From an uncultured bacterium (GTDB taxonomy: Bacteria; Hydrogenedentota; Hydrogenedentia; Hydrogenedentales; JAEUWI01), in contig CAXBPH010000032.1 in assembly GCA_963977445.1 (NCBI GenBank), positions 1-38,233 of the forward strand: DNA of 38,233 nucleotides. The letters are read 5' to 3'. The notes below the pieces were generated by a model, which had not been told where the DNA came from, ran no database searches, and worked only from the letters and a program-made list of their open reading frames with translations. Shown piece by piece: positions 21,769 to 36,397 of the stretch (position 1 is the stretch's first letter; every line of letters begins with the position of its first letter). The translations under genes were made by a program, and so were the position numbers.

Positions 21769-22139
21769 TTCCAGAATCGCTCCTGATTTGGGTTGTGTAC
21801 CCGATATAATTGCCGTAATCCTGCCATTCGACAGGAGAAAGCTACATAGCAGAAGATCTTGCATGATTATAAGTTACCAAAATGTAGGATTTTGGATGGG
21901 GTCTGCATCGCTGTTTTGTTTAACCAACGTCGATCGTCGCTTATGGTAGTTTATAAGTCCTTGCGGTGTAAAGTTTTGTGTCTGTTCTTGACATTTGTTG
22001 AGCTTGTTCTGTATCATACGCTGTGGAATGAACTGCAATTGTCACGCCAGTACTTGGGTCCTGAATGTCGACCAGCAGTCCTCCCCGCACTGATTCCCTT
22101 TCCAGGCACAACCGTATAGTAATAAAAGGTGGATTCATT

Positions 22140-25100
22140 TTGTCTAAGAGAGAAATATCCCGGAGCGGGTTGTACGAACCGTATTATGAGCATGATGCTT
22201 GTGGTATTGGGTTCATGTGCAACATCGACGGAAAGCGCTCCCACGAAGTAATTCAAAACGGCCTTCAGATTTTAGTCAATTTGACCCACCGAGGGGCCTG
22301 TGGCTGCGATCCGGAAACCGGTGATGGTTGTGGCATTATGCTTCACCTCCCCCATGAACTCTTCAAGGAAGACGTTCTGGAGCACGGTTTCGAGTTGCCT
22401 GAACCGGGCGACTACGGCGTGGGCATGATTTTCCTGCCAAAAGATCGGGAATCCCGTGAGTCGTGCATGCAGATCCTCAACAAGGCGATTTCCGAGGGAG
22501 ATCAGGAATTGCTCGGTTGGCGTGACGTGCCCCGGAATTCTGAGGCCATCGGCTGGTTGGCCCGTGAAAACGAACCCACCGTTCGCCAGGTTTTCATTCG
22601 TCGCTCGGAAGATCTTAGTATAGATGAGTTTGAGCGTAGGCTTTACGTCATTCGCAAATCGGCCACCCAGATGATCGGCAACTCGGTCATTTCGGGCAAG
22701 TCTGAATATTATGTGCCCAGCATGTCAGCCCGCACGATCGTGTACAAGGGCCTCATGCTCCCCGACGCAATGGACAAGTACTATCTTGACCTGGCGGATG
22801 AGCGGGCCATGAGCGGCATGGCCCTGGTGCACCAGCGGTACAGCACGAACACCTTGCCTGCCTGGTCGCTGGCCCAGCCCTTCCGCTTTCTGGCGCACAA
22901 CGGTGAAATCAATACCCTTCGCGGTAATCTGAACATGATGGACTCCCGTGAGCATCACTTTGAGAGCTCGCTTTTCGGTGAGGATCTGGCCAAGGTTCGC
23001 CCCATACTCAGTCCCGGTTCCAGTGATTCGGCCAACTTCGACAACGCCTTCGAGCTGTTGGTGCGTGGTGGTCGCGATGTGGACCATGCCATGGCGATGA
23101 TGGTTCCAGAGCCCTGGAGCGGTCATGAGAGCATGCCCGACGACAAAAAAGCATTCTACGAATTCCACGCCTGCAAGATGGAGCCGTGGGATGGTCCTGC
23201 TTCCATGGCCTTCTCCGATGGTGTGCGTATTGGCGCCGTGTTGGACCGGAATGGTCTTCGGCCATCGCGCTATTGGGTCACCAGTGACAACCAGGTCATC
23301 ATGGCTTCCGAAGCGGGCGTGCTGCACCACATCACACAAGATAAGGTGGTGAAAAAGGGGCGCCTCGAGCCTGGCCGTATGTTCCTCGTCGACATGGCCG
23401 AGGGTCGCATCGTTGATGACGCCGAACTCAAAGAGAAATTTGCCAACCGCAATCCTTACCGGGAGTGGCTGGACACGTATCGTATTGAGATGCCGACGGA
23501 TTTGGAGGAAGGGACTTCCACCCAGGAAGAAACGCCTCTTATGGAACGTCAGCAGGTCTTTGGCTATACCCGTGAGGATATGGAAATTATTCTCACGCCG
23601 ATGGCCGAAGATGGAAAAGAGCCAACGGGCTCCATGGGTAACGACGCCGCGCTGGCGGTGCTTTCGCCCCGTCCCCAGTTGCTCTTTAATTACTTTAAGC
23701 AGCTTTTTGCCCAAGTGACGAACCCGCCCATTGACCCGATTCGCGAAGATATCGTTATGTCTCTCGAGACCGATATCGGCCTGGAAGGGAACCTGTTGGG
23801 CGAGAGTCCCGAAGACTGTAAGCAGCTTCATCTCAAGTCTCCCATTCTCAGCAACGCGCAGTTGGACTTCATTAAGAAACTGGATCGCGACGGATTTCGT
23901 GCTGCGGTCGTTTCTACCCTTTTTGAAGCCGACAAGGGTCCGGCCGAAATGGACCGGGCGCTACACGCTATCTGCAAAGAAGCGGCACGTTGTCTTGAAG
24001 ACGGCGCGAATATGATCATCCTGTCGGATCGTGGTGTGAGTAAAAAACTTGCTCCGATTCCCAGTCTGATGGCCACGGGTGCGGTTCACCAGTATCTGGT
24101 GCACAAGCACAAGCGCAGTGAATGCGGGTTGATTATCGAGACCGGTGAAGCCCGCGAAGTTATGCATTTTGCCCTGCTTACGGGCTACGGCGCTGGCGCG
24201 GTGAACCCCTACCTGGCGTTGGAAACTCTGGACGACCTGAAGCATCGTGAAATGTTCGTCGAGAAGAAGCCGGGTATGGCCCACAAAAATTATATTAAGG
24301 CCCTCGAAAAGGGTCTGCTGAAGGTCATGTCGAAAATCGGCATTTCCACGCAGCAGAGTTATCGTTGTGCCCAGATTTTCGAGGCGGTTGGCCTGAATTC
24401 GGCCATCGTGGAGCGCTGCTTTTCCGGTACGGCATCACGTATCGAAGGTATTGGGCTCAAGGAAGTCGCCTTGGAAAGCCTGATGCGCCATGCCATGGCC
24501 TACCCCGAGAAACCTGCCCGCCGCGCTGAACTTGATGTGGGTGGTGCCTATCGCTGGCGTCGTCGTGGCGAATTCCACCAGTGGAATCCCGAGACCGTCG
24601 CCAAACTGCAGCATTCCACCAGTCAGAATAATCAGAAGACCTACGATGAGTTTGCGGAAGAAGTGAACAATCGTAACCGGACCCTTGCGGCCCTGCGTGG
24701 TCTGTTGGAATTCAAAGAAGGCACACCCATTCCGCTGGAACAGGTGGAGCCTGCCTCTGAGATCGTGAAGCGCTTTTGCACCGGTGCCATGTCCTATGGC
24801 TCGATTAGTGCGGAGTCCCACGAAAATCTCGCCATTGCTATGAATCGCATCGGTGGTCGCAGCAATACGGGTGAAGGTGGTGAAGATCCCCGTCGTTTTG
24901 AGCGGGATGAAAAAGGCGATCTCCGTCGAAGCGCCATTAAGCAGGTGGCTTCAGGACGCTTTGGCGTGACCAACGAATATCTCGTTAATTCTGATGAGCT
25001 TCAAATCAAAATGGCTCAAGGTGCCAAGCCCGGCGAAGGTGGTCAGCTTCCCGGCCATAAAGTATTCGAGAATATCGCAACGGTTCGTTATTCGACGCCG

Positions 25101-26675
25101 GGTGTCGAGCTCATTTCTCCGCCACCCCACCATGATATCTATTCCATTGAAGATTTGGCGCAGCTTATCCACGACCTGAAGAACGCCAACGTTCACGGCA
25201 ATGTTTCTGTGAAGCTGGTATCGGAAGTCGGGGTCGGCACCATCGCTGCCGGTGTTTCCAAAGGTAAGGCCGACTTGGTCCTTATCAGCGGACACGACGG
25301 CGGCACGGGTGCTTCGCCACTGACGTCTATCAAGTATGCTGGACTTCCCTGGGAGCTTGGCCTGACGGAGACCCACCAGGTACTGGTCGAAAACGACCTC
25401 CGTGATCGCATCCGCGTCCAGGTGGACGGCCAGATGAAAACCGGTCGCGACGTCGCCATCGGGGCGCTGTTGGGTGCCGACGAGTTTGGTTTTGCTACGG
25501 CTCCCCTTATCGTCTCCGGCTGTATCATGATGCGCAAGTGTCATTTGAATACCTGCCCGGTGGGTATTGCTACCCAGGACCCAGAGCTGCGGAAGAAATT
25601 CCAAGGCAAGCCCGAACACGTGGTGAACTATTTCTTCTTCGTGGCCGAAGAGTGCCGCAAGATAATGGCGGAGTTGGGATTTCGGACCATGACGGAAATG
25701 GTAGGCCGCGCTGACATGCTTAAGTTTTCGCCCTTGCCAGAGCATTGGAAAGCCAAGCACCTCGACTTCTCCCGGGTGCTTCATGTGGCGAAGGCGTGGG
25801 ATAATTCCACCCTCCATCACAGCAAGACTCAGGATCATGGTCTGGACGGTGCGTTGGACCATACGCTTATTGAACAGGCCAAGGCCGCATTGGAAAAGAA
25901 GGAAAAGGTTCGCATTAAGGTTGATATCAAAAACGTCAACCGAACGGTGGGCACGATGCTCTCCAGCGAACTGACCCGTCGCCACGGCCTGGGAATGTAT
26001 ACGGGCAGTCTTCCGGAAGATTTGGTCTGGATTGATTGCATGGGTATCGGTGGCAACAGTTTTGGTGCCTTTATCATCCAGGGTGTTACACTCAACATCG
26101 TTGGGGAAAGCAATGACTATGTGGGTAAAGGACTTTCTGGCGGTAAGATCATTGTATCGCCCTCGCCAGAATTTTCGGGTATCCCAGGTGAGAATATTAT
26201 TATCGGCAACGTGGCGCTCTACGGTGCGACCGCTGGTCAGGCCTATATCAACGGTGTGGCAGGTGAGCGTTTCGCCGTCCGTAACAGTGGTGCCTGGACC
26301 GTCGTTGAAGGGGTTGGCGGCCATGGTTGCGAATACATGACCGGGGGACGGGTTGCTGTCCTCGGTGAGACGGGACGTAACTTTGCCGCCGGTATGAGTG
26401 GTGGCATCGCCTACATTTATGATAAGAGCGGGTCCTTCTCCCTGAAGTGCAACATGGGTAGTGTGGACTTGAAGGGGCTGCATGCCGATAGCGTCGTCGA
26501 CCTGAAGACCATGCTCGAAAATCACGTTAAATACACCGACAGCGCCGTGGCGAAATCCATACTGGCAAACTGGACCGAAGAGCAGCAGCACTTCGTCCGC
26601 GTTATGCCCCGTGATTATGCCCGCGTTTTGAAGCAGCAAAAACAGGAACAGCCGGAGGTAACCCATGCTTCCTGA
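22140..26675 (+). CDS. gltB: Glutamate synthase large subunit
   Basis: EHDACGIG, HQRYSTNT, AHNGEINT, EPWDGPA, QGAKPGEGGQL, CHLNTCPVG and GXGXG repeats. Probable start is TTG at 22140 after AAAGGTGG. Confidence 0.98.
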   Translation: MSKREISRSGLYEPYYEHDACGIGFMCNIDGKRSHEVIQNGLQILVNLTHRGACGCDPETGDGCGIMLHLPHELFKEDVLEHGFELPEPGDYGVGMIFLPKDRESRESCMQILNKAISEGDQELLGWRDVPRNSEAIGWLARENEPTVRQVFIRRSEDLSIDEFERRLYVIRKSATQMIGNSVISGKSEYYVPSMSARTIVYKGLMLPDAMDKYYLDLADERAMSGMALVHQRYSTNTLPAWSLAQPFRFLAHNGEINTLRGNLNMMDSREHHFESSLFGEDLAKVRPILSPGSSDSANFDNAFELLVRGGRDVDHAMAMMVPEPWSGHESMPDDKKAFYEFHACKMEPWDGPASMAFSDGVRIGAVLDRNGLRPSRYWVTSDNQVIMASEAGVLHHITQDKVVKKGRLEPGRMFLVDMAEGRIVDDAELKEKFANRNPYREWLDTYRIEMPTDLEEGTSTQEETPLMERQQVFGYTREDMEIILTPMAEDGKEPTGSMGNDAALAVLSPRPQLLFNYFKQLFAQVTNPPIDPIREDIVMSLETDIGLEGNLLGESPEDCKQLHLKSPILSNAQLDFIKKLDRDGFRAAVVSTLFEADKGPAEMDRALHAICKEAARCLEDGANMIILSDRGVSKKLAPIPSLMATGAVHQYLVHKHKRSECGLIIETGEAREVMHFALLTGYGAGAVNPYLALETLDDLKHREMFVEKKPGMAHKNYIKALEKGLLKVMSKIGISTQQSYRCAQIFEAVGLNSAIVERCFSGTASRIEGIGLKEVALESLMRHAMAYPEKPARRAELDVGGAYRWRRRGEFHQWNPETVAKLQHSTSQNNQKTYDEFAEEVNNRNRTLAALRGLLEFKEGTPIPLEQVEPASEIVKRFCTGAMSYGSISAESHENLAIAMNRIGGRSNTGEGGEDPRRFERDEKGDLRRSAIKQVASGRFGVTNEYLVNSDELQIKMAQGAKPGEGGQLPGHKVFENIATVRYSTPGVELISPPPHHDIYSIEDLAQLIHDLKNANVHGNVSVKLVSEVGVGTIAAGVSKGKADLVLISGHDGGTGASPLTSIKYAGLPWELGLTETHQVLVENDLRDRIRVQVDGQMKTGRDVAIGALLGADEFGFATAPLIVSGCIMMRKCHLNTCPVGIATQDPELRKKFQGKPEHVVNYFFFVAEECRKIMAELGFRTMTEMVGRADMLKFSPLPEHWKAKHLDFSRVLHVAKAWDNSTLHHSKTQDHGLDGALDHTLIEQAKAALEKKEKVRIKVDIKNVNRTVGTMLSSELTRRHGLGMYTGSLPEDLVWIDCMGIGGNSFGAFIIQGVTLNIVGESNDYVGKGLSGGKIIVSPSPEFSGIPGENIIIGNVALYGATAGQAYINGVAGERFAVRNSGAWTVVEGVGGHGCEYMTGGRVAVLGETGRNFAAGMSGGIAYIYDKSGSFSLKCNMGSVDLKGLHADSVVDLKTMLENHVKYTDSAVAKSILANWTEEQQHFVRVMPRDYARVLKQQKQEQPEVTHAS

Positions 26676-28185
26676 TAAAGAAAAAGGGTTCATGCTCTTC
26701 GATCGCGAATTGCCGCAGGATGAAGCGCCGGATGAACGTCTGAAGCACTACAAAGAGTTTTCCACGTCGCTGCCGCCCGAGCGTATTACGGAGCAGGCGT
26801 ATCGTTGCATGAATTGCGGAATTCCTTTTTGTCATAGCGGTTGTCCGCTGGGCAATCAAATTCCCGATTTTAATGAACTGATGAAGGACGAGGATTGGGA
26901 AGAAGCGCTTCACGTGCTTCACTCAACCAATAATTTTCCAGAATTCACCGGTCGGGTGTGTCCTGCGCCATGCGAGACTGCCTGTGTGCTGGGCATCAAT
27001 GAGCCCGCCGTCACGATCGAAATCAACGAACGGGAAATCGCCGACCGCGGTTGGCGTGAGGGCTGGGTCACCCCACAAGTTCCAGAGCGGCGTACGGGCA
27101 AGACCGTTGCTGTAGTTGGCTCGGGGCCTGCGGGTCTTGCCGCTGCACAGCAGCTGAATCGTGCCGGGCACAATGTGGTCGTGTATGAGCGCTCCGATGA
27201 GCCCGGTGGATTGCTTATGTATGGCATTCCCAACTTCAAGCTCGATAAGCAGACCGTACTACGACGGGTTGGCCAGTTGAAAGAAGAAGGCGTTGAGTTT
27301 ATTTGCAATGCCGAAGTGGGTGTCAATGTACCCACCAGTAAGCTGGATCAATACGACGCTGTTCTCATTGCTATCGGTTCCACTAAAAGCCGTACCTTTG
27401 AGGGAATGAGTGTTCCCGGCTCTGACTTGAAGGGCATTTATCCGGCAATGGACTTTCTGCCCCAGCAGACGCGACGTGTCCTTGGTAAGACGGTAAAAGT
27501 AGAGGAAATACTGGCGACCGAGAAAAACGTTATCGTTATTGGCGGTGGAGATACCGGATCTGACTGCGTGGGAACAAGTTTGCGCCAGGGCTGTAAAAGC
27601 CTGGTCAACCTTGAGCTCATGCCGAAGCCCCCTGTGGATCGCGTGGGAAGCAATCCCTGGCCCCAGTGGTCCTTCGTGTTTCGCTCGTCTTCCAGCCACA
27701 AAGAAGGTGGTGAACGTCGGTACAGCGTGCTGACCAAGTCCTTTGAGGATGATGGTAAGGGCAATGTAAGCGCGTTGAATACCGTGCAGCTCGCGTGGGG
27801 CGAACCCGATGAAACGGGTCGCCGTCAGATGCAGGAAGTTCCCGGTACCGAAGAACGCATACCAGCAGAACTCGTGCTTCTGGCTATGGGATTCACCCAG
27901 CCGGAGACGGATACGTTCGTGAAGGAACTGGATCTGACGTTGGATCGCAATCGCTTTGGTCAGGGTATTCAAGCCAATACCCTGGACTTCATGACGACGA
28001 AAGACAAGTATTTTGTGGCCGGCGATGCCCGTCGTGGTCAGTCGCTGGTGGTCTGGGCGATACACGAAGGCCGTGAATCTGCACGGGCCATAGACCTGTA
28101 TCTCATGGGCGAGTCCACGTTGCAGGCCAGTGACAGCCAGGGATACGAGAGTCTCTCCCTTGAAGGTTCCCCCGTAGGCACCTGA
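26665..28185 (+). CDS. gltD: Glutamate synthase small subunit
   Basis: RCMNCGIPFC, GCPLGN, NNFPEFTGRVCPAPCE, GSGPAG, GGGDTGSDC and RRGQSLVVWAI. Confidence 0.97.
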   Translation: MLPDKEKGFMLFDRELPQDEAPDERLKHYKEFSTSLPPERITEQAYRCMNCGIPFCHSGCPLGNQIPDFNELMKDEDWEEALHVLHSTNNFPEFTGRVCPAPCETACVLGINEPAVTIEINEREIADRGWREGWVTPQVPERRTGKTVAVVGSGPAGLAAAQQLNRAGHNVVVYERSDEPGGLLMYGIPNFKLDKQTVLRRVGQLKEEGVEFICNAEVGVNVPTSKLDQYDAVLIAIGSTKSRTFEGMSVPGSDLKGIYPAMDFLPQQTRRVLGKTVKVEEILATEKNVIVIGGGDTGSDCVGTSLRQGCKSLVNLELMPKPPVDRVGSNPWPQWSFVFRSSSSHKEGGERRYSVLTKSFEDDGKGNVSALNTVQLAWGEPDETGRRQMQEVPGTEERIPAELVLLAMGFTQPETDTFVKELDLTLDRNRFGQGIQANTLDFMTTKDKYFVAGDARRGQSLVVWAIHEGRESARAIDLYLMGESTLQASDSQGYESLSLEGSPVGT

Positions 28186-28219
28186 GTCCACACCGCTTGA
28201 CCTATCAACGGCCTGGAAT

Positions 28220-28228
28220 TGGTATAAT
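28220..28228 (+). promoter_or_regulatory. Candidate extended -10 promoter upstream of the peptide array
   Basis: A perfect TGnTATAAT (TGGTATAAT). A TTGACC lies at 28197-28202 but with a 20 bp spacer. A second candidate, TGCTATGCT, is at ~28393-28401. Confidence 0.35.
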
Positions 28229-28436
28229 TTCCAATTTTGGGCCGTTTTTTTAGCCAACTGTCAGCAAAAGTGGAACTTTTTTCGTTTTACAGGGGATTAG
28301 ATGAAGAGGGTGTAACATCCTTGGCAGCCCGTCGGTACAGTAGGTATACCAAGGGCCGACGGCAGCACGGCTTCTACCATTAGAGGTCGGTGTGCTATGC
28401 TCTGGAGGTGCCCTTACTGTTGGAAGGAATTTACTG

Positions 28437-28586
28437 TTGAAACACCTGACATTGATTGCCCGAACACCCCTTCGCGCTGAGGAATTCACCACGGGACAGA
28501 AATTGAGCCTTGCCGCTGGAATTACGCAAGCTATTTCCGCCTTTTTCGTCACCAAAGAGCCCCCTGTGGTTACGACGACGCCCTGA
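28437..28586 (+). CDS. Putative precursor peptide P1 (49 aa)
   Basis: TTG start after AAGGA. Translation: MKHLTLIARTPLRA-EEFTTGQKLSLAAGITQAISAFFVTKEPPVVTTTP. Confidence 0.8.
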   Translation: MKHLTLIARTPLRAEEFTTGQKLSLAAGITQAISAFFVTKEPPVVTTTP

Positions 28587-28632
28587 TTCCTACGTTTTCA
28601 TCAACGAATACGGATACGAAGAGGAAGCTATT

Positions 28633-28830
28633 TTGAAACATTTACGCACCATATCCTGCACGCCCCTACAGGCGCAGCAAGCAAGTTTTAGTTTTGCAGC
28701 TATTTTTTCACTGGTTGCGGATATCCTCGCCGCTGTTGCCTTGGCCGTTACTGCCAAGGAAAGTTCCAATTTGACCGGCCTGACCGGTCTCCTGACGGGC
28801 GGCACGAGCGGCACGAGCACCCCTCCCTGA
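28633..28830 (+). CDS. Putative precursor peptide P2 (65 aa)
   Basis: TTG start after GAGGA. Translation: MKHLRTISCTPLQA-QQASFSFAAIFSLVADILAAVALAVTAKESSNLTGLTGLLTGGTSGTSTPP. Confidence 0.8.
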   Translation: MKHLRTISCTPLQAQQASFSFAAIFSLVADILAAVALAVTAKESSNLTGLTGLLTGGTSGTSTPP

Positions 28831-28935
28831 AGAGATTGCATGGTAGTGGTCGGCGAGAAGCTGATACTTGAAACGAGTACCTAACCAGAGGCTTCCTGCA
28901 TCGTATTGTAGTCGCAGGGCCAGGAGGGAATATTG

Positions 28936-29103
28936 ATGCGACATTTGACGTGCTTATCCAAGCGTCCGGAACGGGCACAAACGGGGGTTTGCGCCACTAT
29001 AGGAAGTGACTACCAGGCGCTGCTATGCTTCATCATTGAAGCGCTCAATACGGTTTTCCCCAGCTTCATCCAGTCAAAGACGCCAACGCAGACCGCGATC
29101 TGA
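28936..29103 (+). CDS. Putative precursor peptide P3 (55 aa; not in the ORF track)
   Basis: ATG after a strong AGGAGG SD. Translation: MRHLTCLSKRPERA-QTGVCATIGSDYQALLCFIIEALNTVFPSFIQSKTPTQTAI. Confidence 0.85.
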   Translation: MRHLTCLSKRPERAQTGVCATIGSDYQALLCFIIEALNTVFPSFIQSKTPTQTAI

Positions 29104-29109
29104 TTGCGT

Positions 29110-29316
29110 ATGGGGAGCGGTGACCAGCGTGGGGCGGTCCACGTGAGAATGATAAGTCGAATTCCGGAAAGGGCGCAAAGCCTCGCGCCGGAAGTGAAGC
29201 TTACGTTCTTGCGAGAGCTTCTCGTCGCCTCGGGAGATACCTCGGCACTTCGTGGCTTCCTCACCGTGACCATCCCGCTCTTCGTCAACAAGGATCCAAG
29301 CAACCCCGCATCATAA
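29110..29316 (+). CDS. Putative precursor peptide P4 (start uncertain)
   Basis: Translation: (MGSGDQRGA)VHVRMISRIPERA-QSLAPEVKLTFLRELLVASGDTSALRGFLTVTIPLFVNKDPSNPAS. It carries the same leader motif. Confidence 0.75.
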   Translation: MGSGDQRGAVHVRMISRIPERAQSLAPEVKLTFLRELLVASGDTSALRGFLTVTIPLFVNKDPSNPAS

Positions 29317-29399
29317 TATATGGGGTTGCGTTTCAAACTTGTAGCGGCTGCCAAAATATGCTCTAATAGGCGGAACCGAGAACAAACCGGAGTGAGTAC

Positions 29400-29525
29400 A
29401 TGAAACACATCAGGCAGATTTCGACCCCTAAGGCCGATGCGTTTGTGGATTTCTACAACGCCCTCTACCGTGCGTGGATAGACTTTCGCAATGGCAAAAA
29501 GGACGAGGCCCAATCGGGGTTCTAG
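29400..29525 (+). CDS. Putative precursor peptide P5 (41 aa; not in the ORF track)
   Basis: ATG after GGAG. Translation: MKHIRQISTPKA-DAFVDFYNALYRAWIDFRNGKKDEAQSGF. Confidence 0.8.
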   Translation: MKHIRQISTPKADAFVDFYNALYRAWIDFRNGKKDEAQSGF

Positions 29526-29550
29526 TTCTTCAAAAACGATACATGTAGTA

Positions 29551-29591
29551 CCGGGGCCTGACGCCCAAAGCGCGGGTTCCGGTTCCTTTGT
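29551..29591 (+). terminator. Imperfect GC-rich hairpin with weak U-tail between the peptide array and the modifier genes
   Basis: CCGGGGCCTG-A-CGC / CCAAA loop / GCG-CGGGTTCCGG, followed by TTCCTTTGT. Confidence 0.4.
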
Positions 29592-29638
29592 TCAGGGGTG
29601 CCGATCTGCGGTTCGCCCGATGGAGACTATGCGCGACC

Positions 29639-30184
29639 ATGATTCGTGGGGAACATAGCTTTATCCGGGGTACGGAACAGGACGATGTGGAGGCCCTGTT
29701 CGGCCTTTATGCGCCCGGCGTACTTCGGGCCGGGCTACTCGATGCGCGGCGGGAACCCTTGCTGGTCACGCGGGACGATCTTCGCGATCTCCTGACCCGA
29801 AAGGAAATCGCGGACGGTAGCTTTTACACCGTTGAGTCGAAGACGGGGGCCATCGTGGGATTTTGTAGCATTCGCGGATTGAACACCGATGCCCGATTTG
29901 CTGAGTATGGTATTCAGTTCACCGATACGGACTGCTATGGGGCCGATCTGGCGAGGGAAGTGCATGATTTTCTCCTGGATCGGGCGTTTAAGCGTCTGGG
30001 GCTGCGCAAGGTTATTGCCCACGCTCTCACCGAAGAAACGGCGATGGTAGAATTTCTCCGGGGGAAGGGATTCATGTCTGCGGGCGTCCAGCGGGAAATT
30101 CTGTTTTCCCAGGGCACGTGGCATCACCTGGAAACGCTTGTCTTGAATAATCCGTCCTTCAACGCTTCCCAGGCCGTGAGTTAG
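29639..30184 (+). CDS. RimJ/RimL-type GNAT N-acyltransferase
   Basis: MIRGEHSFIR..EQDD start, AFKRLGLRKV and GF..AGVQRE...GTWH C-terminus. Confidence 0.8.
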   Translation: MIRGEHSFIRGTEQDDVEALFGLYAPGVLRAGLLDARREPLLVTRDDLRDLLTRKEIADGSFYTVESKTGAIVGFCSIRGLNTDARFAEYGIQFTDTDCYGADLAREVHDFLLDRAFKRLGLRKVIAHALTEETAMVEFLRGKGFMSAGVQREILFSQGTWHHLETLVLNNPSFNASQAVS

Positions 30185-30186
30185 CT

Positions 30187-30816
30187 ATGCCTTTCACAAC
30201 CACAACCTATATTCGCCGCGCTGAACGGGACGACCTCGACACCGTTGTTGCGTGGATGGAAAGTGCCGACTTTCAGCATTTTCTCTACGGCGATCCTGCC
30301 CGTTCTCCCAAACTGGTTCGGGAAAAGATCGTCGCCATGCTGGGGCGCGCCGTAGGCCATACCATGCCCGGCGGTATCTATCTGTTGATTGACTCGCCCG
30401 CCTTGGGACCGGTGGGGCTATTGTCCCTGCAGAATATCAGCTGGCGGAATCGTTCGTGCAGTATTGATCTGTACATTGGCAAGACGGAGCATCGCAGTGG
30501 GATTATAGCGGCCGGCGCGGTGTACCAAACGTTGGAGTATTGCTTTCACGAGCTGAACCTCCACCGGGTCAGTGCGTTCATCTATAGTTTTAATACGGCT
30601 TCCTGGCGCATATTGGAAAAGACCGGCGCGAAACGGGAGCTTATCCTGCAGGATCACGTCGCCCGGGATGGCAACCTATTTGACCTCTATGGCTACGGGC
30701 TGCTTCGCAGTGAATTCGACGCGTTTCGCGCCGAGTACCACCATACCGCTTCCGGCTTCTCCCTCGAGGCGATGATCGAAACCTTGGGGCGTGCCGGCAC
30801 GGAGCCCGACGGTTGA
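30187..30816 (+). CDS. RimJ/RimL-type GNAT N-acyltransferase
   Basis: IRRAERDDL, ISWRNRSCSIDLYIG, YCFHELNLHRV, FNTASWRILEKTG and YGLLRSEF. Confidence 0.88.
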   Translation: MPFTTTTYIRRAERDDLDTVVAWMESADFQHFLYGDPARSPKLVREKIVAMLGRAVGHTMPGGIYLLIDSPALGPVGLLSLQNISWRNRSCSIDLYIGKTEHRSGIIAAGAVYQTLEYCFHELNLHRVSAFIYSFNTASWRILEKTGAKRELILQDHVARDGNLFDLYGYGLLRSEFDAFRAEYHHTASGFSLEAMIETLGRAGTEPDG

Positions 30817-31706
30817 ATATTGTATTGCTCGCGACGCTGGTTGCCTATGCGATTCATGCGGTATGGGTGCACTCGCTCCAAGGCCCCGAAGCCGACGAGA
30901 CCGATACCCACCTGCACCGGGGAATGCCGTTCCCGATAATGCCACTGGGGCTTTTTCTGTTGTGCCAGGCCCTGGGCTCACCCGGCATTGCCGCATTCAT
31001 AAAATCACCGGGTACCTTGATCTTCGGCAGTGCGTTTTTCCTCTGGATGCTCTATCGCCAAGTGAAAAAGAATCGCACCGAGGCAGATGGAGGCGGCGAT
31101 ATTCGTTCTCAATGCTCCTATGCCCTCGGCGGCGTCCTCCAATCGGGCCTGCTCGTCGTCTCGTGTTACCTGGCCTATGAGGCTGGCGCGATTGGCAGGA
31201 GCCTTTTCAGTCCCGGTTGGGGTATACTAGGGGTTGTTGCGGGTCACTTTATCTTCGGCGTATCCCTGTGTTTCAGCCATCGTTCACTCGATTCACTGAA
31301 AAATATCGGGCGTTACGTCTTAGGCGTGCGTTCCGTGGCCCGATTTGCATTTGAGGCTCCGCGCCAGGTTTTCGCGTGCCTTGACGTGAGTCTGATGGAA
31401 GAGATTATTTATCGTGTGGCGGCGCAGAGTGTACTTGTCGTCTTGGTAGGGAATCCCACGATAGCGATCGTGCTGGTTGCCATCATCTTTTCCATCGTGC
31501 ATCGCCATTTCTTCTACAACCCTATCGTGGATTCGATAGAGTTTTTGGCCTTTTCCTTGCTTTTGGGCGGGCTATATTACTGGTCGGAGAGCTTGATACT
31601 TGTGGTGATGATACACACCATACGAAATTTTGAGATTGTTTACTTTGATCATGCGGAAGGTCCGCTGGCTGTATCAACGGCCAGGGCACTCCGTTTAAGG
31701 GCCTGA
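30813..31706 (+). CDS. CPBP (CAAX protease type II/Abi) intramembrane glutamic metalloprotease
   Basis: Multiple TM segments, and all three motifs: EEIIYR (EExxxR), FSIVH (FxxxH) and HTIRN (HxxxN). Confidence 0.88.
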   Translation: MNIVLLATLVAYAIHAVWVHSLQGPEADETDTHLHRGMPFPIMPLGLFLLCQALGSPGIAAFIKSPGTLIFGSAFFLWMLYRQVKKNRTEADGGGDIRSQCSYALGGVLQSGLLVVSCYLAYEAGAIGRSLFSPGWGILGVVAGHFIFGVSLCFSHRSLDSLKNIGRYVLGVRSVARFAFEAPRQVFACLDVSLMEEIIYRVAAQSVLVVLVGNPTIAIVLVAIIFSIVHRHFFYNPIVDSIEFLAFSLLLGGLYYWSESLILVVMIHTIRNFEIVYFDHAEGPLAVSTARALRLRA

Positions 31707-31712
31707 ACAGGA

Positions 31713-32738
31713 ATGTCGGATACTTCAGATAAATTCATTGAACTGGCTAATTTGAAAAAGTCGTTCGTGCTTCGCAATTTCTTCGTGAAAGACGAAGATA
31801 CGGGCAAACGTCGCCTCTATCGAAAAACCTTCGTGCACGCAGTGCAAGGGGTGGATTTCAGCATTGCCCGGGGAGAGATATTTGGCTTGCTCGGGCCCAA
31901 CGGTGCGGGCAAGACCACGACCGTCAAAATGCTTAGTGGGCTGGTGAAGCCTGACGGCGGGCATGTCACGGTGGATGGCCTGGAAGTTGAGCGCTATCGC
32001 CAGAAAGTGTTGCGCAAAGTCGGGGTCGTTCTCGAAGGTACCCGTACCAGCATCTGGCCATTGACGCCCCTGGAAAATCTGGCCTACTACGGCAATCTAA
32101 AAAATGTAAAAGGGGCCGTACTTAAAGAGCGGTCAAACCGACTACTCGACTTTATCGGCCTCAAAGATAAGAAAAACGTGGAAGTACGTCATCTTTCACG
32201 TGGCCAGAAACAGAAATTGGCCATATGTATCGCCATGATTGCCGATCCACAGGTGCTTCTGCTTGACGAACCCACCACGGGGTTGGATGTGCAGAGTGCC
32301 CGCGCGATTAAAGATAAAATTATCGAAATGACTCGGGAGCACGGGAAGAGTGTTCTCGTCACGACCCACGACATGCATGTGGCGCAAGAGCTCTGCGACC
32401 GGATCGGAATTATTGACAAAGGGAAGCTCGTGGCCTGTAAGCCGACACAAGAGCTCCTCGGTAACTTTTCTGAGCAGGTCTACGTCTTCCAACTGGATCG
32501 CGAACCCGAGCTGGCGGCCCTGCAGGCCCTCCCCGGCGTTCTTTCGGTAGAGCGGGAACTTACGGTGGACGGTCCGGCGGCCGTGGTCAGTCTCCAACCA
32601 GATAGTGAAGTTCGCTCCCGCGCGCTTTACGCGGTGGTGGAGACACTCGCGCGTGGCTCCTTTGAACTACGGGGCATCTCGCAGCGACAGCAGAATCTGG
32701 AGAGTATTTTCCTCCAATTGACCACCAGCAGTATTTAA
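31713..32738 (+). CDS. ABC exporter ATP-binding subunit
   Basis: Walker A GPNGAGKT, signature LSRGQ, Walker B LLLDEPT and H-loop TTHD. Confidence 0.95.
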   Translation: MSDTSDKFIELANLKKSFVLRNFFVKDEDTGKRRLYRKTFVHAVQGVDFSIARGEIFGLLGPNGAGKTTTVKMLSGLVKPDGGHVTVDGLEVERYRQKVLRKVGVVLEGTRTSIWPLTPLENLAYYGNLKNVKGAVLKERSNRLLDFIGLKDKKNVEVRHLSRGQKQKLAICIAMIADPQVLLLDEPTTGLDVQSARAIKDKIIEMTREHGKSVLVTTHDMHVAQELCDRIGIIDKGKLVACKPTQELLGNFSEQVYVFQLDREPELAALQALPGVLSVERELTVDGPAAVVSLQPDSEVRSRALYAVVETLARGSFELRGISQRQQNLESIFLQLTTSSI

Positions 32739-32782: not shown

Positions 32783-33631
32783 ATGAGTTTTCTTCTCGTT
32801 ATGAAAGCCGAAATTGTGCAGGCCCTTATCATAATGCGCCGATATTGGTTTCGTACCATCATCGGAATGGTTATGGGTTATGGCATGCTGCTCGTCCTCA
32901 TTGCCGGCTTTATGGTAAGCCGCAAAGAAGTGACCGACATGGCCGTGGGGCGTTTTGGCGATGCAGAATCCGCTACCAACTTTGTGCTTGGATTTATTAT
33001 CGGCATGTTCGCCTTTGGGATTGTGGGTATGTTCACCCAGGGCATTCAGGGAATGGCAAGCACCGGCGTGTTGGAGCAGTTGTGCCTCAGCCCCCATGGC
33101 CTGATTACGAACTTTCTTGCCCGCAGCACGGTCGCAGGTATTACGACCTGTTTGTCTTCAAGTTTCATGGTTTGGCTGGTCACAGAGACGGTGGGGGGGC
33201 AGCTCTATTTCGATGGGCTGGCTTTGGCGTCCGTGCTGGTGCTCACCTTCATAAATCTGCTCGGATTTGGCTTTATGATGGGGGGGCTGGTCCTGGTCTT
33301 CAAGCAGGTGGGGCAGGTCGCCATCCTGATACGAATGGGGCTCTTTGCCCTGGCTATCTTCGCCAAAGAGGAACTGCTCCACAAAGGCTGGGCCATGGCA
33401 ACCTTTGTACATGCCCTTCCTATTGCGGATGCCGCCATCCTATTGAAATGGATATTAATCTCCAATCAGGGGCGTGAAGGAGACAACATGGAAAATTATG
33501 TCTCTGCCTTTCAGCACCCCTCCATGTTCTTTCTCATACTCAGTTGTGTGGTCTGGACCGGTTTGGGCATGACCTGCTTCAAACTGATGGAAAACTGGAG
33601 TCGCGCCAAAGGAACCCTGGGAACCTACTGA
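32783..33631 (+). CDS. ABC-2 type exporter permease
   Basis: About 6 TM helices, a GVLEQLCLSP motif and a C-terminal KGTLGTY; adjacent to the ATPase. Confidence 0.85.
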   Translation: MSFLLVMKAEIVQALIIMRRYWFRTIIGMVMGYGMLLVLIAGFMVSRKEVTDMAVGRFGDAESATNFVLGFIIGMFAFGIVGMFTQGIQGMASTGVLEQLCLSPHGLITNFLARSTVAGITTCLSSSFMVWLVTETVGGQLYFDGLALASVLVLTFINLLGFGFMMGGLVLVFKQVGQVAILIRMGLFALAIFAKEELLHKGWAMATFVHALPIADAAILLKWILISNQGREGDNMENYVSAFQHPSMFFLILSCVVWTGLGMTCFKLMENWSRAKGTLGTY

Positions 33632-35490
33632 TGGCACGAACCGCACTGCATCGATTCGAACGGGACGGCAGACGATTCGTGTTGGACACAGACACCTGTT
33701 TCTGTTTTGAGTGCGACGCCATATCCTGGGATGTGTTGGGATACTATCCCGACACGCCGGTGAATCAAATCGTCCATACCCTCGGTACGACGCACCCACC
33801 GGCGGAGCTGGAAGAAGTCATCGGCGAATTGGAGTGGTTGCGGGCAACAAAGTCCATCTTGCCGTTGAAAAAACAGCAGGATCAGATCAAAGATTTTGAG
33901 TTGGTGCCCGGACTGCGTCAATTGGATCTATCCCTTGACGGCAGAAATCGTCTCACGGAACGCTGTGATGGGGCACTCATGCTGCTTTTGGGGCGTTCGG
34001 GCACGCAGAAGAATCTGAAAATAAGCCTGTTCTTCAGTGATTTTGAAGGATTGGGCGAATGGTTGCCCCAGTGGGGGAAACGTGCCTTTGATTGCGCGAA
34101 GATGGCGGGGAAAGTTTTGACCCTTGGTCTGGTGCATACCGCCCCGCGCCGCCACCGCGCCGATAAAGCACTCGGAGACCACCCGGTAAACGTTGCCTGT
34201 ACCTTTACCACGGCAGACACCCTGGCGCCGACCTTGGGCGCCTGGTCGAAGGCCCGTTCCGGCGCGTTGGGACGTTTAACACGTAGCATCGGCACTGGGG
34301 AAGGAGAAGAGCTCTCCGTAACACTCGTACCCCACAACGGCACGTTTGACGCGGCGGTACGCTACCTGGTCAAAGAGGGCTTCAAGCGGGTCGATATCGA
34401 CATCATCGCTGCCTATGGTCACGTCGCCGCCGGGGAGAGCGATTCTATCGTGTCCGGACTGGAGTCAACGGCGGTCTTTTATGCCCAGGAACTCCTTAAG
34501 CGAAATTACTTCCGTCTGGAGCCCATCGCCGGACTCTTCCATCAGATATACGAGGGTAAGGCCCGCTCTCGGGCGGACGAAGCAGGCACTTGGTTACTCG
34601 CCATGGATGAACGTGGCGATATTTATCCTTCACGGCACTTTTTCGACGTCGCCGAGTATCGCCTGGGCAATATATGTGACGGTGATTTTGATGAGGACCG
34701 CCGCTCAACCTTTGACGACATGGGTATCATGACGACGTCGCCCTGTGGCACCTGTTGGGCACGTAATCTGTGCGGTGGCGGATACAGCGCGGTCCATCGC
34801 GTTCTTGGAGGTTCCATTCGTCGTCCCGATGGCACGTGGTGTGATTCCCAGCGAGATTGGTATGCTGCCGCGATCGCGGCGTTTAATATGCTTTCGGCAG
34901 AGGGGGTGGATTTTGCCCGCCTCTATCAGAACCTGCGCCCCGGAAAGGGGATGTCGCTCTGGGGAATGGCCCGGGCGGCCCTCACGATGAACGTGGGGCT
35001 ACGTCCCATTGAAGAATCGGATGCGGCGCTGCTGACCCGCTGGGAAAACTGGAGCGAGGCCGCCTATTTTCTGGGCAACGAATATGGCGTATTCCTGGCA
35101 ACCCGCTATGACCGGGAGATGGATTCCCTTCATCCCAGGGGCATTGAGCAGGAATTCATGATCATCTCCCGCCGCGGGGCTCCCCTGGGGCTTCTGAAAA
35201 TCAGGCCGGATGGTGTTGCTGGATTGGCTCGGGTCTGGATTTACTTCCAAGACCAGGCGCTCTATCAAGACAAGGCCACACGGAGTAGTTTTTCCCGAAT
35301 TATTAGAGAGGCTTCTAAGCAGGGCGCTTTCCGCCGATTCGTCGCGGCTTCCGGGCCCGGTGATAACGGACTGAGCGAGTTTCTGGAGGCCATCGGCTTC
35401 GCTCCCCTGGGTGTCGAGCGCGAGGCGTTGTTTCTCCACGATGCCTACCACGATATCGCGTTATTTCAGATGGTTATGAGTCCATCTTAA
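33631..35490 (+). CDS. RRE + degenerate radical-SAM core + SPASM + C-terminal GNAT fusion protein
   Basis: ATG overlaps the permease TGA. N-terminus is CteB-like RRE (HRFERDGRRFVLD...EEVIGELEWL). SPASM region reads GDIYPS..LGNI..CGTCWARNLCGGG..WC. C-terminus is a GNAT (LRPIEESD...GF..LGVERE). No CxxxCxxC motif. Confidence 0.8.
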   Translation: MARTALHRFERDGRRFVLDTDTCFCFECDAISWDVLGYYPDTPVNQIVHTLGTTHPPAELEEVIGELEWLRATKSILPLKKQQDQIKDFELVPGLRQLDLSLDGRNRLTERCDGALMLLLGRSGTQKNLKISLFFSDFEGLGEWLPQWGKRAFDCAKMAGKVLTLGLVHTAPRRHRADKALGDHPVNVACTFTTADTLAPTLGAWSKARSGALGRLTRSIGTGEGEELSVTLVPHNGTFDAAVRYLVKEGFKRVDIDIIAAYGHVAAGESDSIVSGLESTAVFYAQELLKRNYFRLEPIAGLFHQIYEGKARSRADEAGTWLLAMDERGDIYPSRHFFDVAEYRLGNICDGDFDEDRRSTFDDMGIMTTSPCGTCWARNLCGGGYSAVHRVLGGSIRRPDGTWCDSQRDWYAAAIAAFNMLSAEGVDFARLYQNLRPGKGMSLWGMARAALTMNVGLRPIEESDAALLTRWENWSEAAYFLGNEYGVFLATRYDREMDSLHPRGIEQEFMIISRRGAPLGLLKIRPDGVAGLARVWIYFQDQALYQDKATRSSFSRIIREASKQGAFRRFVAASGPGDNGLSEFLEAIGFAPLGVEREALFLHDAYHDIALFQMVMSPS

Positions 35491-35599
35491 TCGGCCCTTG
35501 CACCGCACCGAATCTTGGAGTAGACTGGTTATATATGGGAACTGTCGTCTCTACGCCGACGTACAGGAAATGTCAGATTCAAACTTCGAGGCCTATCCG

Positions 35600-35989
35600 A
35601 TGATTAAAGTTGTGATTGCTGATGACGACCCACACGTTGCCCGTTTTGAAGGACGCGTAATGGAATCGCTCGGATATTCAGCTATCCTCTGCCGCGATGG
35701 ATTGCGTGCGCTTTCTGTGTTGGAAGATAATCCCGATGTAAGTTTACTTATTACCGACGTCTCCATGCCCAATATGGGAGGCCGTGAGTTGGTTAGTGAG
35801 CTCCGCCGACATGGGCAATTTCAACGCCTGCCTATCATTTTGACCTCGGGGGTCGTTCGGGTTTCGGAAATCGCCGACTTACTCGATATCGGCGTGACCT
35901 GTTTTCTGGGAAAACCAGTGGAACTGGGTGACTTGAAAAGTTATGCCCGCAGTCTGGTAAGCCAGAAGACGGGCTCTCTGGTCGGCTGA
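35600..35989 (+). CDS. Single-domain response regulator (receiver)
   Basis: ADDD, LITDVSMPNMGG and LGKP; GAGG SD before ATG 35600. Confidence 0.9.
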   Translation: MIKVVIADDDPHVARFEGRVMESLGYSAILCRDGLRALSVLEDNPDVSLLITDVSMPNMGGRELVSELRRHGQFQRLPIILTSGVVRVSEIADLLDIGVTCFLGKPVELGDLKSYARSLVSQKTGSLVG

Positions 35990-36010: not shown

Positions 36011-36397
36011 ATGATACGTGTAGTCATTGCAGAAGATGAACCGACGGTAGCCAAAACGATAGCCCGCTGTATGCTCTCTCTGGGGTATCACCCCGTAATA
36101 TGCAGCGATGGTCAACGTGCCCTGAATGTCATCGAAGACAATCCAGACACGAAGCTACTCATCACGGACGTTTCCATGCCGAATTTCGATGGTCGTGATC
36201 TGGTCCAGCGATTACAAGCGAACGAAAAATTCAGCAAAATACCCACCATTGTCATCTCCGGTTTGGTGAGCGTGGCCGAGATTGCCCACCTGGTCGACAA
36301 TGGCGTGACCTACTTTCTGGGCAAGCCTGTCAATCTCGAAGACCTGAAGGAACACGCACGAAGTCTGGTTGAGCATGACCGTCATCCTGTAGAGTGA
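36011..36397 (+). CDS. Single-domain response regulator (receiver), paralog of the upstream gene
   Basis: AEDE, LITDVSMPNFDG and LGKP; GGAGA SD. Confidence 0.9.
   Translation: MIRVVIAEDEPTVAKTIARCMLSLGYHPVICSDGQRALNVIEDNPDTKLLITDVSMPNFDGRDLVQRLQANEKFSKIPTIVISGLVSVAEIAHLVDNGVTYFLGKPVNLEDLKEHARSLVEHDRHPVE

Follow-up and report, generated by a model that had tools for sequence, protein, structure and literature searches.

A leader-tagged array of five short conserved genes and an associated operon for putative peptide maturation and export in a Hydrogenedentota genome

Contig CAXBPH010000032.1 (38,233 nt; assembly GCA_963977445.1) of an uncultured Hydrogenedentota bacterium, referred to here in its full length as the window, carries an array of five short open reading frames (ORFs), P1 to P5, at positions 28437-29525 of the + strand. 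The five encoded peptides have an N-terminal leader in common, followed by dissimilar cores that are each conserved in relatives. Downstream of the array are genes encoding two GNAT-type N-acyltransferases (GNAT1 and GNAT2), a CPBP-family intramembrane protease, an ABC-2 transporter and a 619-aa fusion protein. With moderate confidence, the array and this operon are read as a leader-guided, non-radical system for the maturation and export of peptides.

The leader array and its coding status

All five genes are present where an annotation made from the sequence alone (the first-pass annotation) had placed them. The leaders that it quoted are correct, as are the residues that follow them (E, Q, Q, Q and D for P1 to P5, respectively). 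The leader occupies the N-terminal 12-14 residues of each peptide and has the motif M-K-H-[LI]-x-x-[LI]-S-x-x-P-x-x-A. Shine-Dalgarno-like sites had been assigned to P1, P2, P3 and P5 at normal spacing, and these are found 7-8 nt 5' of the starts (P1: GGAAGGA, 8 nt; P2: GAGGA, 7 nt; P3: AGGAGG, 8 nt; P5: GGAG, 7 nt). On direct reading of the sequence, P4 has no clear site of this type.

The starts of P1 and P2 are wrong in the program-made ORF list, as had been noted: P1 is listed from GTG 28392 and P2 from TTG 28510. Orthologues of both genes have TTG or GTG at the same aligned position, and the TTG starts given in Table 1 are therefore supported. Orthologues of P3 and P5 always have ATG. These two genes are indeed missing from the list, because both fall under its default 60-aa cut. 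Short genes with TTG or GTG starts are thus mis-called systematically at this locus. At the canonical start position of P4, GTG or ATG is found in 8/9 relatives, GCG in the window and GAG in one relative from the same genus (L022). Because the gene is still under purifying selection, it probably uses one of the closest in-frame start codons, GTG 29143 or ATG 29149.

A leader profile was built from 60 peptides of relatives, none of them from this genome, and compared with all 160,587 ORFs from the six reading frames of the 7.1-Mb assembly. Its top four matches are P5 (27.4 bits), P3 (27.4 bits), P4 (20.9 bits) and P2 (19.5 bits), all of which score higher than every residue-shuffled copy (n = 3; maxima 13.8-15.1 bits). 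These four leaders are therefore above chance. P1 (14.4 bits) is not, by the profile alone. The suspicion that the motif is equally frequent in shuffled sequence is thus removed for P2-P5 and stays with P1.

The ratio of nonsynonymous to synonymous substitution rates (dN/dS) was calculated pairwise by the Nei-Gojobori method among seven members of the genus. Because dS is often saturated, only some of the 21 pairs are usable (P1: 8, P2: 9, P3: 17, P5: 11). Median dN/dS is 0.175 for P1, 0.133 for P2, 0.154 for P3 and 0.072 for P5. For P4, values range from 0.09 to 0.45 overall and from 0.13 to 0.24 against four genus relatives. Judged by these substitution patterns, the five ORFs are coding genes with purifying selection acting on their cores.

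The peptides do not belong to named families. At E<=1, the only NCBIfam or Pfam matches of P1-P5 are two chance-level Pfam matches of P5, and an ESM Atlas search with P3 gave no usable match. A profile of 24 P5 orthologues retrieves 154 database clusters, all unnamed or "hypothetical" and none with a Pfam domain. A scan of 28100-29700 against Rfam gave no match, and a scan for sigma-70-type promoters found none. Four sequencing runs contained no more than 6-11% of the sampled words. A contig from the RNA library of a relative covers 29315-29497 (the end of P4 to P5), although this library may contain DNA and the contig cannot show transcription. P1-P4 were otherwise uncovered, an absence that carries no weight as evidence.

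Core families

The cores have little in common with one another, as the first-pass annotation had stated. In 9/10 pairs, the local-alignment z is <=2.2 relative to shuffled sequences; the exception is P1-P4 (z 4.1). The description of these cores as hypervariable and of the peptides as combinatorial is contradicted by the orthologues. For every paralogue there are orthologues, from other species and genera, in which the core is conserved, and the cores of P1, P2, P3 and P5 are under purifying selection (medians 0.072-0.175). The family cores across genomes are FTTGQKL.LAAGI..KE. (P1), ..AAIF..L..IL.AV..AV..KES. (P2), C..I.SDYQALLCF..K(T/A)PTQ. (P3), APEVKLTFL..IPLF.NKDP.NP. (P4) and ADAF.DF.NA..RAW.DFR..KK.E. 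(P5). The P5 family has the conserved stretch ..DFYNALFRAWVDFRNGKKDE.., and residues M1, H3, A12, W26 and K33 are invariant in its 24 orthologues. Additional core families are present in other genera. On the evidence of these alignments, the array is a fixed set of distinct peptides and not a diversifying library.

Beyond the leader, the families have a common architecture that consists of a helix, then a Lys with E, N, D or T after it, and a short polar tail. Among 102 distinct peptides of relatives, 101 have a Lys beyond residue 20. Counted from the end of the peptide, the last Lys has a median distance of 7 residues, and the residue after it is E, N, D or T in 83/101. The cores are mostly free of Cys (90/102), and two Cys are found only in the P3-type family.

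In some genus members (L023, L026, L027, L046, L047 and L106), there are two tandem P1 paralogues, giving a six-member array (two P1 and P2-P5).

The downstream operon

The identification of P1-P5 as leader-plus-core, precursor-like peptides is supported, and the array is directly upstream of conserved genes with predicted roles in modification, proteolysis and export. A strong terminator-like hairpin 3' of gltD shows where a new transcription unit begins (Table 1). The operon genes are on the same strand and are closely spaced or overlapping; the permease stop overlaps the start of the fusion gene by one base (TGATG). The CPBP protein has the conserved domain PF02517 (E-value: 7.9e-11) and retains all three catalytic motifs intact (LMEEIIYR, FSIVH and IHTIRN). 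GNAT1 and GNAT2 match only the generic family PF13302 and SpeG, RimJ or AAC(6') structures.

The order GNAT1-GNAT2-CPBP-ABC-permease-fusion is kept in 19/20 fetched loci of relatives. It is also found in G041, which belongs to the same phylum but lies outside the order of the source genome. There, the last protein has 27% identity to that of the window, and three MKH-type ORFs precede the operon. A lack of conservation in syntenic loci, which had been named as a finding that would speak against the array, is not what is seen: leader ORFs and operon are syntenic in relatives.

The gltB and gltD genes (window positions 22065-28185) are directly upstream of the array in 11/20 fetched loci from several families, and a split of the operon leaves them beside the array.

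Table 1. Coordinates of the peptide genes, the operon and two stand-alone leader ORFs (window positions unless a contig is named)
Feature	Position	Strand	Details
Terminator-like hairpin	28207..28246	+	3' of gltD; 16-bp stem and T run
P1, precursor-like peptide	28437..28586	+	TTG start, 49 aa; leader MKHLTLIARTPLRA; core EEFTTGQKLSLAAGI..FFVTKE plus tail
P2, precursor-like peptide	28633..28830	+	TTG start, 65 aa; leader MKHLRTISCTPLQA; hydrophobic helix ..AAIFSLVADILAAVALAVTAKESS, Thr/Gly/Ser tail
P3, precursor-like peptide	28936..29103	+	ATG start, 55 aa; leader MRHLTCLSKRPERA; two conserved Cys in core, ..SKTPTQ
P4, precursor-like peptide	29143..29316, start uncertain	+	Frame open from 29104; core APEVKLTFL..IPLFVNKDPSNPAS
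P5, precursor-like peptide	29400..29525	+	ATG start, 41 aa; leader MKHIRQISTPKA; core DAFVDFYNALYRAWIDFRNGKKDEAQSGF
GNAT1, Acetyltransf_3-type N-acyltransferase	29639..30184	+	Start probably ATG 29639 by orthologue consensus
GNAT2, Acetyltransf_3-type	30187..30816	+	Best-conserved operon protein, 51-83% identity
CPBP/Rce1-like glutamic-type intramembrane protease	30813..31706	+	EExxxR, FxxxH and HxxxN motifs present
ABC transporter ATPase, DrrA/ABC-2 type	31713..32738	+	Domain matches
Polytopic membrane protein, probably ABC-2 permease	32783..33631	+	PF12698 weak, 17.5 bits, below cut-off
619-aa fusion protein	33631..35490	+	RRE-like N-terminus, CteB-like barrel without CxxxCxxC, SPASM remnant (4 invariant Cys), C-terminal RimL-like GNAT
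Stand-alone leader ORF, contig C63	L116 6778-6906	-	MKHVRPISVAKA.., 42 aa, GGAGG-type Shine-Dalgarno site, 18.3 bits
Stand-alone leader ORF, contig C319	L001 133-312	+	MKHLFPLSKPARA.., 59 aa, GGAGG-type Shine-Dalgarno site, found by pattern only

The fusion protein

Existing names for the 619-aa protein go no further than "SPASM domain-containing protein" or "GNAT family N-acetyltransferase". A profile made from 11 orthologues is similar over residues 4-413 to CteB (PDB 5WGG; E-value: 8.6e-37), and the C-terminus matches the GNAT acetyltransferases RimL, RimJ and BAR. The AlphaFold model of the fusion has a mean local confidence (pLDDT) of 74 and a predicted template-modelling (TM) score (pTM) of 0.60. 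Its best Foldseek match is 5wgg_A (E-value: 2.8e-16, TM 0.67). In PMC6231123, CteB is described as an enzyme composed of a RiPP (ribosomally made and post-translationally modified peptide) recognition element (RRE), an AdoMet-radical domain and a SPASM domain, with the substrate leader extending the RRE beta-sheet. Homology and predicted fold both point to an RRE in the window protein: residues 4-79 align with the N-terminal domain of CteB, and three strands and three helices are predicted at 6-72. A predicted complex of the N-terminal domain (residues 1-110) with P5 has a score of 0.14, which speaks neither for nor against binding.

The radical S-adenosylmethionine (radical-SAM) motif CxxxCxxC is absent in 11/11 aligned orthologues, and the fusion has no match to Pfam Radical_SAM at E<=1. 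Having lost this motif, the fusion should be incapable of radical chemistry. Scored against the SCIFF maturase model TIGR03974, the protein reaches 61.3 bits (cut-off 425). The Cys of the CteB sequence GDIYPC is replaced by Ser in the window, and the fourth Cys of CxxCxxxxxCxxxC is replaced by Tyr. The SPASM-region cysteines C372, C375, C381 and C404 are invariant in the orthologues. A Cys-x-Cys-x-x-Cys sequence (TCFCFECD; residues 23-28, window positions 33697-33714) is also invariant and lies in the third RRE-like strand, where CteB has no Cys. These cysteines may bind a metal or belong to the edge at which the leader would bind. In two distant fused relatives, CFVFE(I/T)D stands in place of TCFCFECD.

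Among 1.84 billion representative sequences, the fused family is small and discrete, with roughly 35-40 full-length clusters as read from the table of matches. Below these clusters, the scores drop to proteins of 450-490 aa that match positions 3-420 only. In all three of the nearest non-fused relatives that were examined, CNLRCxYC is present. The distant fused members P0281 and P0285 are without CxxxCxxC but retain the Aux I cysteines and more of the SPASM cysteines, among them those of GDIYPC and CxxCxxxxxCxxxC that are lost in the window protein, and so they resemble intermediates in the loss of the clusters. By homology, the fusion combines a full-length counterpart of the ranthipeptide maturase CteB, now without the radical-SAM motif, with a RimL-like GNAT.

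In several relatives (for example, G023, G025, G037 and G040), the N-terminal ~130 residues of the fusion were matched separately, with a stop or frame change ahead of the remainder; in the profile search, the protein is uninterrupted there. The RRE domain might be encoded by its own gene in some lineages.

Distribution in the phylum

The fusion is found in 38/41 relatives. By profile search it is encoded in 123/135 genomes of the phylum, 83/86 high-quality genomes and 60/66 genera, and it is missing mainly in one family (9/14). Leader ORFs are found upstream in 18/19 syntenic loci (60 ORFs, of which 3 lack a start codon at the motif) and in 39/48 further loci that have >=5.4 kb of upstream sequence, with 0-5 ORFs per locus. 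A P5 profile search found the peptide in the one fusion-bearing genome examined (1/1) and in 0/4 genomes without the fusion. The system is single-copy and is kept in most genomes of the phylum.

Proposed model

Maturation may proceed in the following way. The maturation genes would be transcribed together with the array, the cores of which would be five different helical segments. The alternating residues of the leader (K-H-[LI]-x-x-[LI]-S) would bind the RRE-like N-terminal domain of the fusion as an added beta-strand. The fusion would serve as a scaffold, offering the core to its own GNAT domain and to the two free GNATs. These would acylate amines on the Lys that almost every family has a few residues before the polar tail, at a new N-terminus at the invariant Ala, or at both. 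The CPBP protease would remove the leader, the tail or both at the membrane, and the ABC-2 transporter would export or flip the product.

Acylation of amines at the near-C-terminal Lys, at a new N-terminus or at both is probable by analogy with the selidamides. In these peptides, GNATs attach fatty acids to Lys or Orn of RiPP cores, and the precursors have Lys at the core termini (PMC8784127). Further precedent for acylation of Lys or Orn by selidamide GNATs is given in PMC13647313. Since the system is single-copy, kept in most of the phylum and subject to purifying selection in its cores, its products are more likely to serve physiology, as a fixed set of peptides of the envelope, the surface or signalling, than warfare.

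Several observations weigh against this model. No leader ORF adjoins the operon in 9/48 of the further loci. In one such genome, G037, there are no precursors beside the fusion; four leader ORFs and GNAT1 adjoin gltBD on another contig. P4 has lost its canonical start codon in this genome, and the score of the P1 leader is within the range of the shuffles. The conserved R/Q-x-x-G-x-G/A loop is absent, by eye, from all three GNAT domains across orthologues. At ~1.5 Lys per core, and with the observed Lys frequency of 4.6%, a 35-residue core would contain some Lys by chance in ~80% of cases, so only the position of the Lys and its invariance within families are telling. The C-terminal Lys is absent in 1/102 peptides overall and in 1/3 peptides of G041. 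Near-universal conservation within a phylum is unusual for a RiPP cluster. Finally, the model goes beyond gene order, domain homologies, conservation and coding status in the binding of the leader by the RRE, the acylation, the site of cleavage and the export.

If the model is correct, a peptide-maturation system is near-universal in Hydrogenedentota, a largely unstudied phylum. Near-universality points to a physiological, non-accessory role of modified ribosomal peptides. The repurposing of a radical-SAM/SPASM maturase without its radical cluster as a substrate-binding scaffold, by fusion to a GNAT, would be an evolutionary route that is not described in the literature searched. With five short conserved substrates and three small enzymes, the set can be tested directly.

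A bolder extension of the model is possible but doubtful. It holds that the peptides are a housekeeping RiPP set of the Hydrogenedentota core genome, in which at least five co-conserved, leader-tagged helices would receive acyl groups from GNATs, the scaffold being a "fossil" radical-SAM maturase that has lost its radical cluster but kept its RRE and one SPASM cluster. A CAAX-type protease would then trim the peptides after the modified Lys (compare prenyl-CAAX processing), and the products would be placed in the envelope. In that case, a RiPP system would belong to the core genome instead of to secondary metabolism, and the non-radical SPASM-GNAT enzyme would define a new RiPP class.

Alternative explanations

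The peptides might instead be secreted or membrane-active without any modification, similar to class II bacteriocins or surfactants. The motif would then be an export or cleavage signal only, the CPBP and ABC-2 proteins would serve in processing or self-protection, and the GNATs would act elsewhere. The amphipathic or hydrophobic helices with polar tails fit such products, and the pairing of CPBP with ABC-2 is a known theme (the CPBP protein weakly matches an NCBIfam model of a fused ABC permease/CPBP). Modification of the peptides is, moreover, deduced from the neighbouring genes. However, three GNAT domains occur in strict synteny with the peptides, one of them fused to a maturase scaffold with an RRE-like domain, and GNAT1 remains with the array in the split operon. 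Cores under purifying selection and a single copy kept in most of the phylum are also a poor fit to bacteriocin-type turnover. This explanation is considered unlikely.

P1-P5 could also be resident small integral or peripheral membrane proteins that act as subunits or regulators of a transporter/protease complex, with the common N-terminus as a tag for assembly or regulated proteolysis. P2 and several relatives do have a transmembrane-like helix, the conservation resembles that of housekeeping genes, and the orphan copies on C63 and C319 are found among unrelated genes. On the other hand, five unrelated cores that have only a leader in common form the pattern of precursors, and the RRE-bearing maturase homologue in the operon would have no obvious role. 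Such a function is quite improbable.

A prochlorosin-like combinatorial RiPP library, with cores that are hypervariable and diversify fast behind a single guiding leader, is hardly tenable. A single array with one leader and five dissimilar cores has this appearance, as does the variation in array members from 0 to 5 between loci, but the orthologue alignments, with core families conserved across species and genera (dN/dS 0.07-0.25), contradict it. There is also no lanthipeptide synthetase in a Pfam scan of 11 ORFs (14298 to 38035, gltBD excluded) or among the six operon proteins when compared with NCBIfam.

Least probable of all is that the array consists of chance open frames or a non-coding regulatory region with the real gene antisense (for example, the 167-aa frame at 29010-29513): long antisense frames lie over the array, in six relatives as in the window itself, and do not discriminate because they occur in all seven regions examined, but they have no Pfam match, whereas the sense frames have purifying selection, conserved starts and Shine-Dalgarno sites, there is no Rfam match and the leader motif scores far above shuffles.

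Relation to known systems

The likeness of the fusion to the SCIFF/ranthipeptide thioether maturase CteB (PDB 5WGG/5WHY) is one of homology over residues 4-413, the RRE, barrel and SPASM region. The window protein differs in that it is without CxxxCxxC and has a C-terminal GNAT, and the cores are mostly Cys-free. The radical-SAM motif, a score reaching the TIGR03974 cut-off and a Cys-rich precursor, all features of ranthipeptide/SCIFF systems, are thus lacking.

In prochlorosin-type lanthipeptide systems, several precursors have one common leader and dissimilar cores. The array differs from these in having conserved orthologous core families and a short leader, and there is no LanM in the operon.

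The CPBP protein resembles CPBP/Rce1-family proteases (MroQ and MrtJ models) in its intact catalytic motifs and in its peptide-processing context beside an ABC-2 transporter. Its scores are far below both cut-offs (MroQ: 12.6 bits, cut-off 270; MrtJ: 21.5 bits, cut-off 75).

The selidamide systems (KspN and PhaN) are similar in that GNAT enzymes are encoded within a ribosomal-peptide cluster and the precursors have Lys acylation sites at the core ends (PMC8784127). Selidamide precursors have NHLP or Nif11 leaders and LanM and arginase partners, whereas the leader here is 12-14 residues long and the operon has no such partners. No NHLP or Nif11 leader was found in P1-P5 (NCBIfam and Pfam, E<=1). 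The system is therefore not of the ranthipeptide, selidamide or prochlorosin type, because the defining features of each were looked for and are lacking. A literature search, with subscription journals outside its scope, found no description of a Hydrogenedentota system of leader peptides, SPASM-GNAT and CPBP.

Stand-alone copies and neighbouring genes

The first-pass annotation had proposed that a hidden Markov model (HMM) of the five window leaders would reveal further stand-alone precursors in this genome. The HMM alone finds no extra members, as the C319 ORF, at 13.5 bits, is within the shuffle range (11.9-15.6). Two stand-alone leader ORFs, on contigs C63 and C319 (Table 1), were found by the relatives' profile and by a sequence pattern, respectively. 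Both lie among unrelated genes, and the C319 copy is 130 nt from the contig end.

Directly 3' of the operon are genes encoding two receiver-only response regulators (35498-35989 and 36011-36397). These adjoin the operon in only 1/20 fetched loci (L025), which makes it probable that they lie outside the system.

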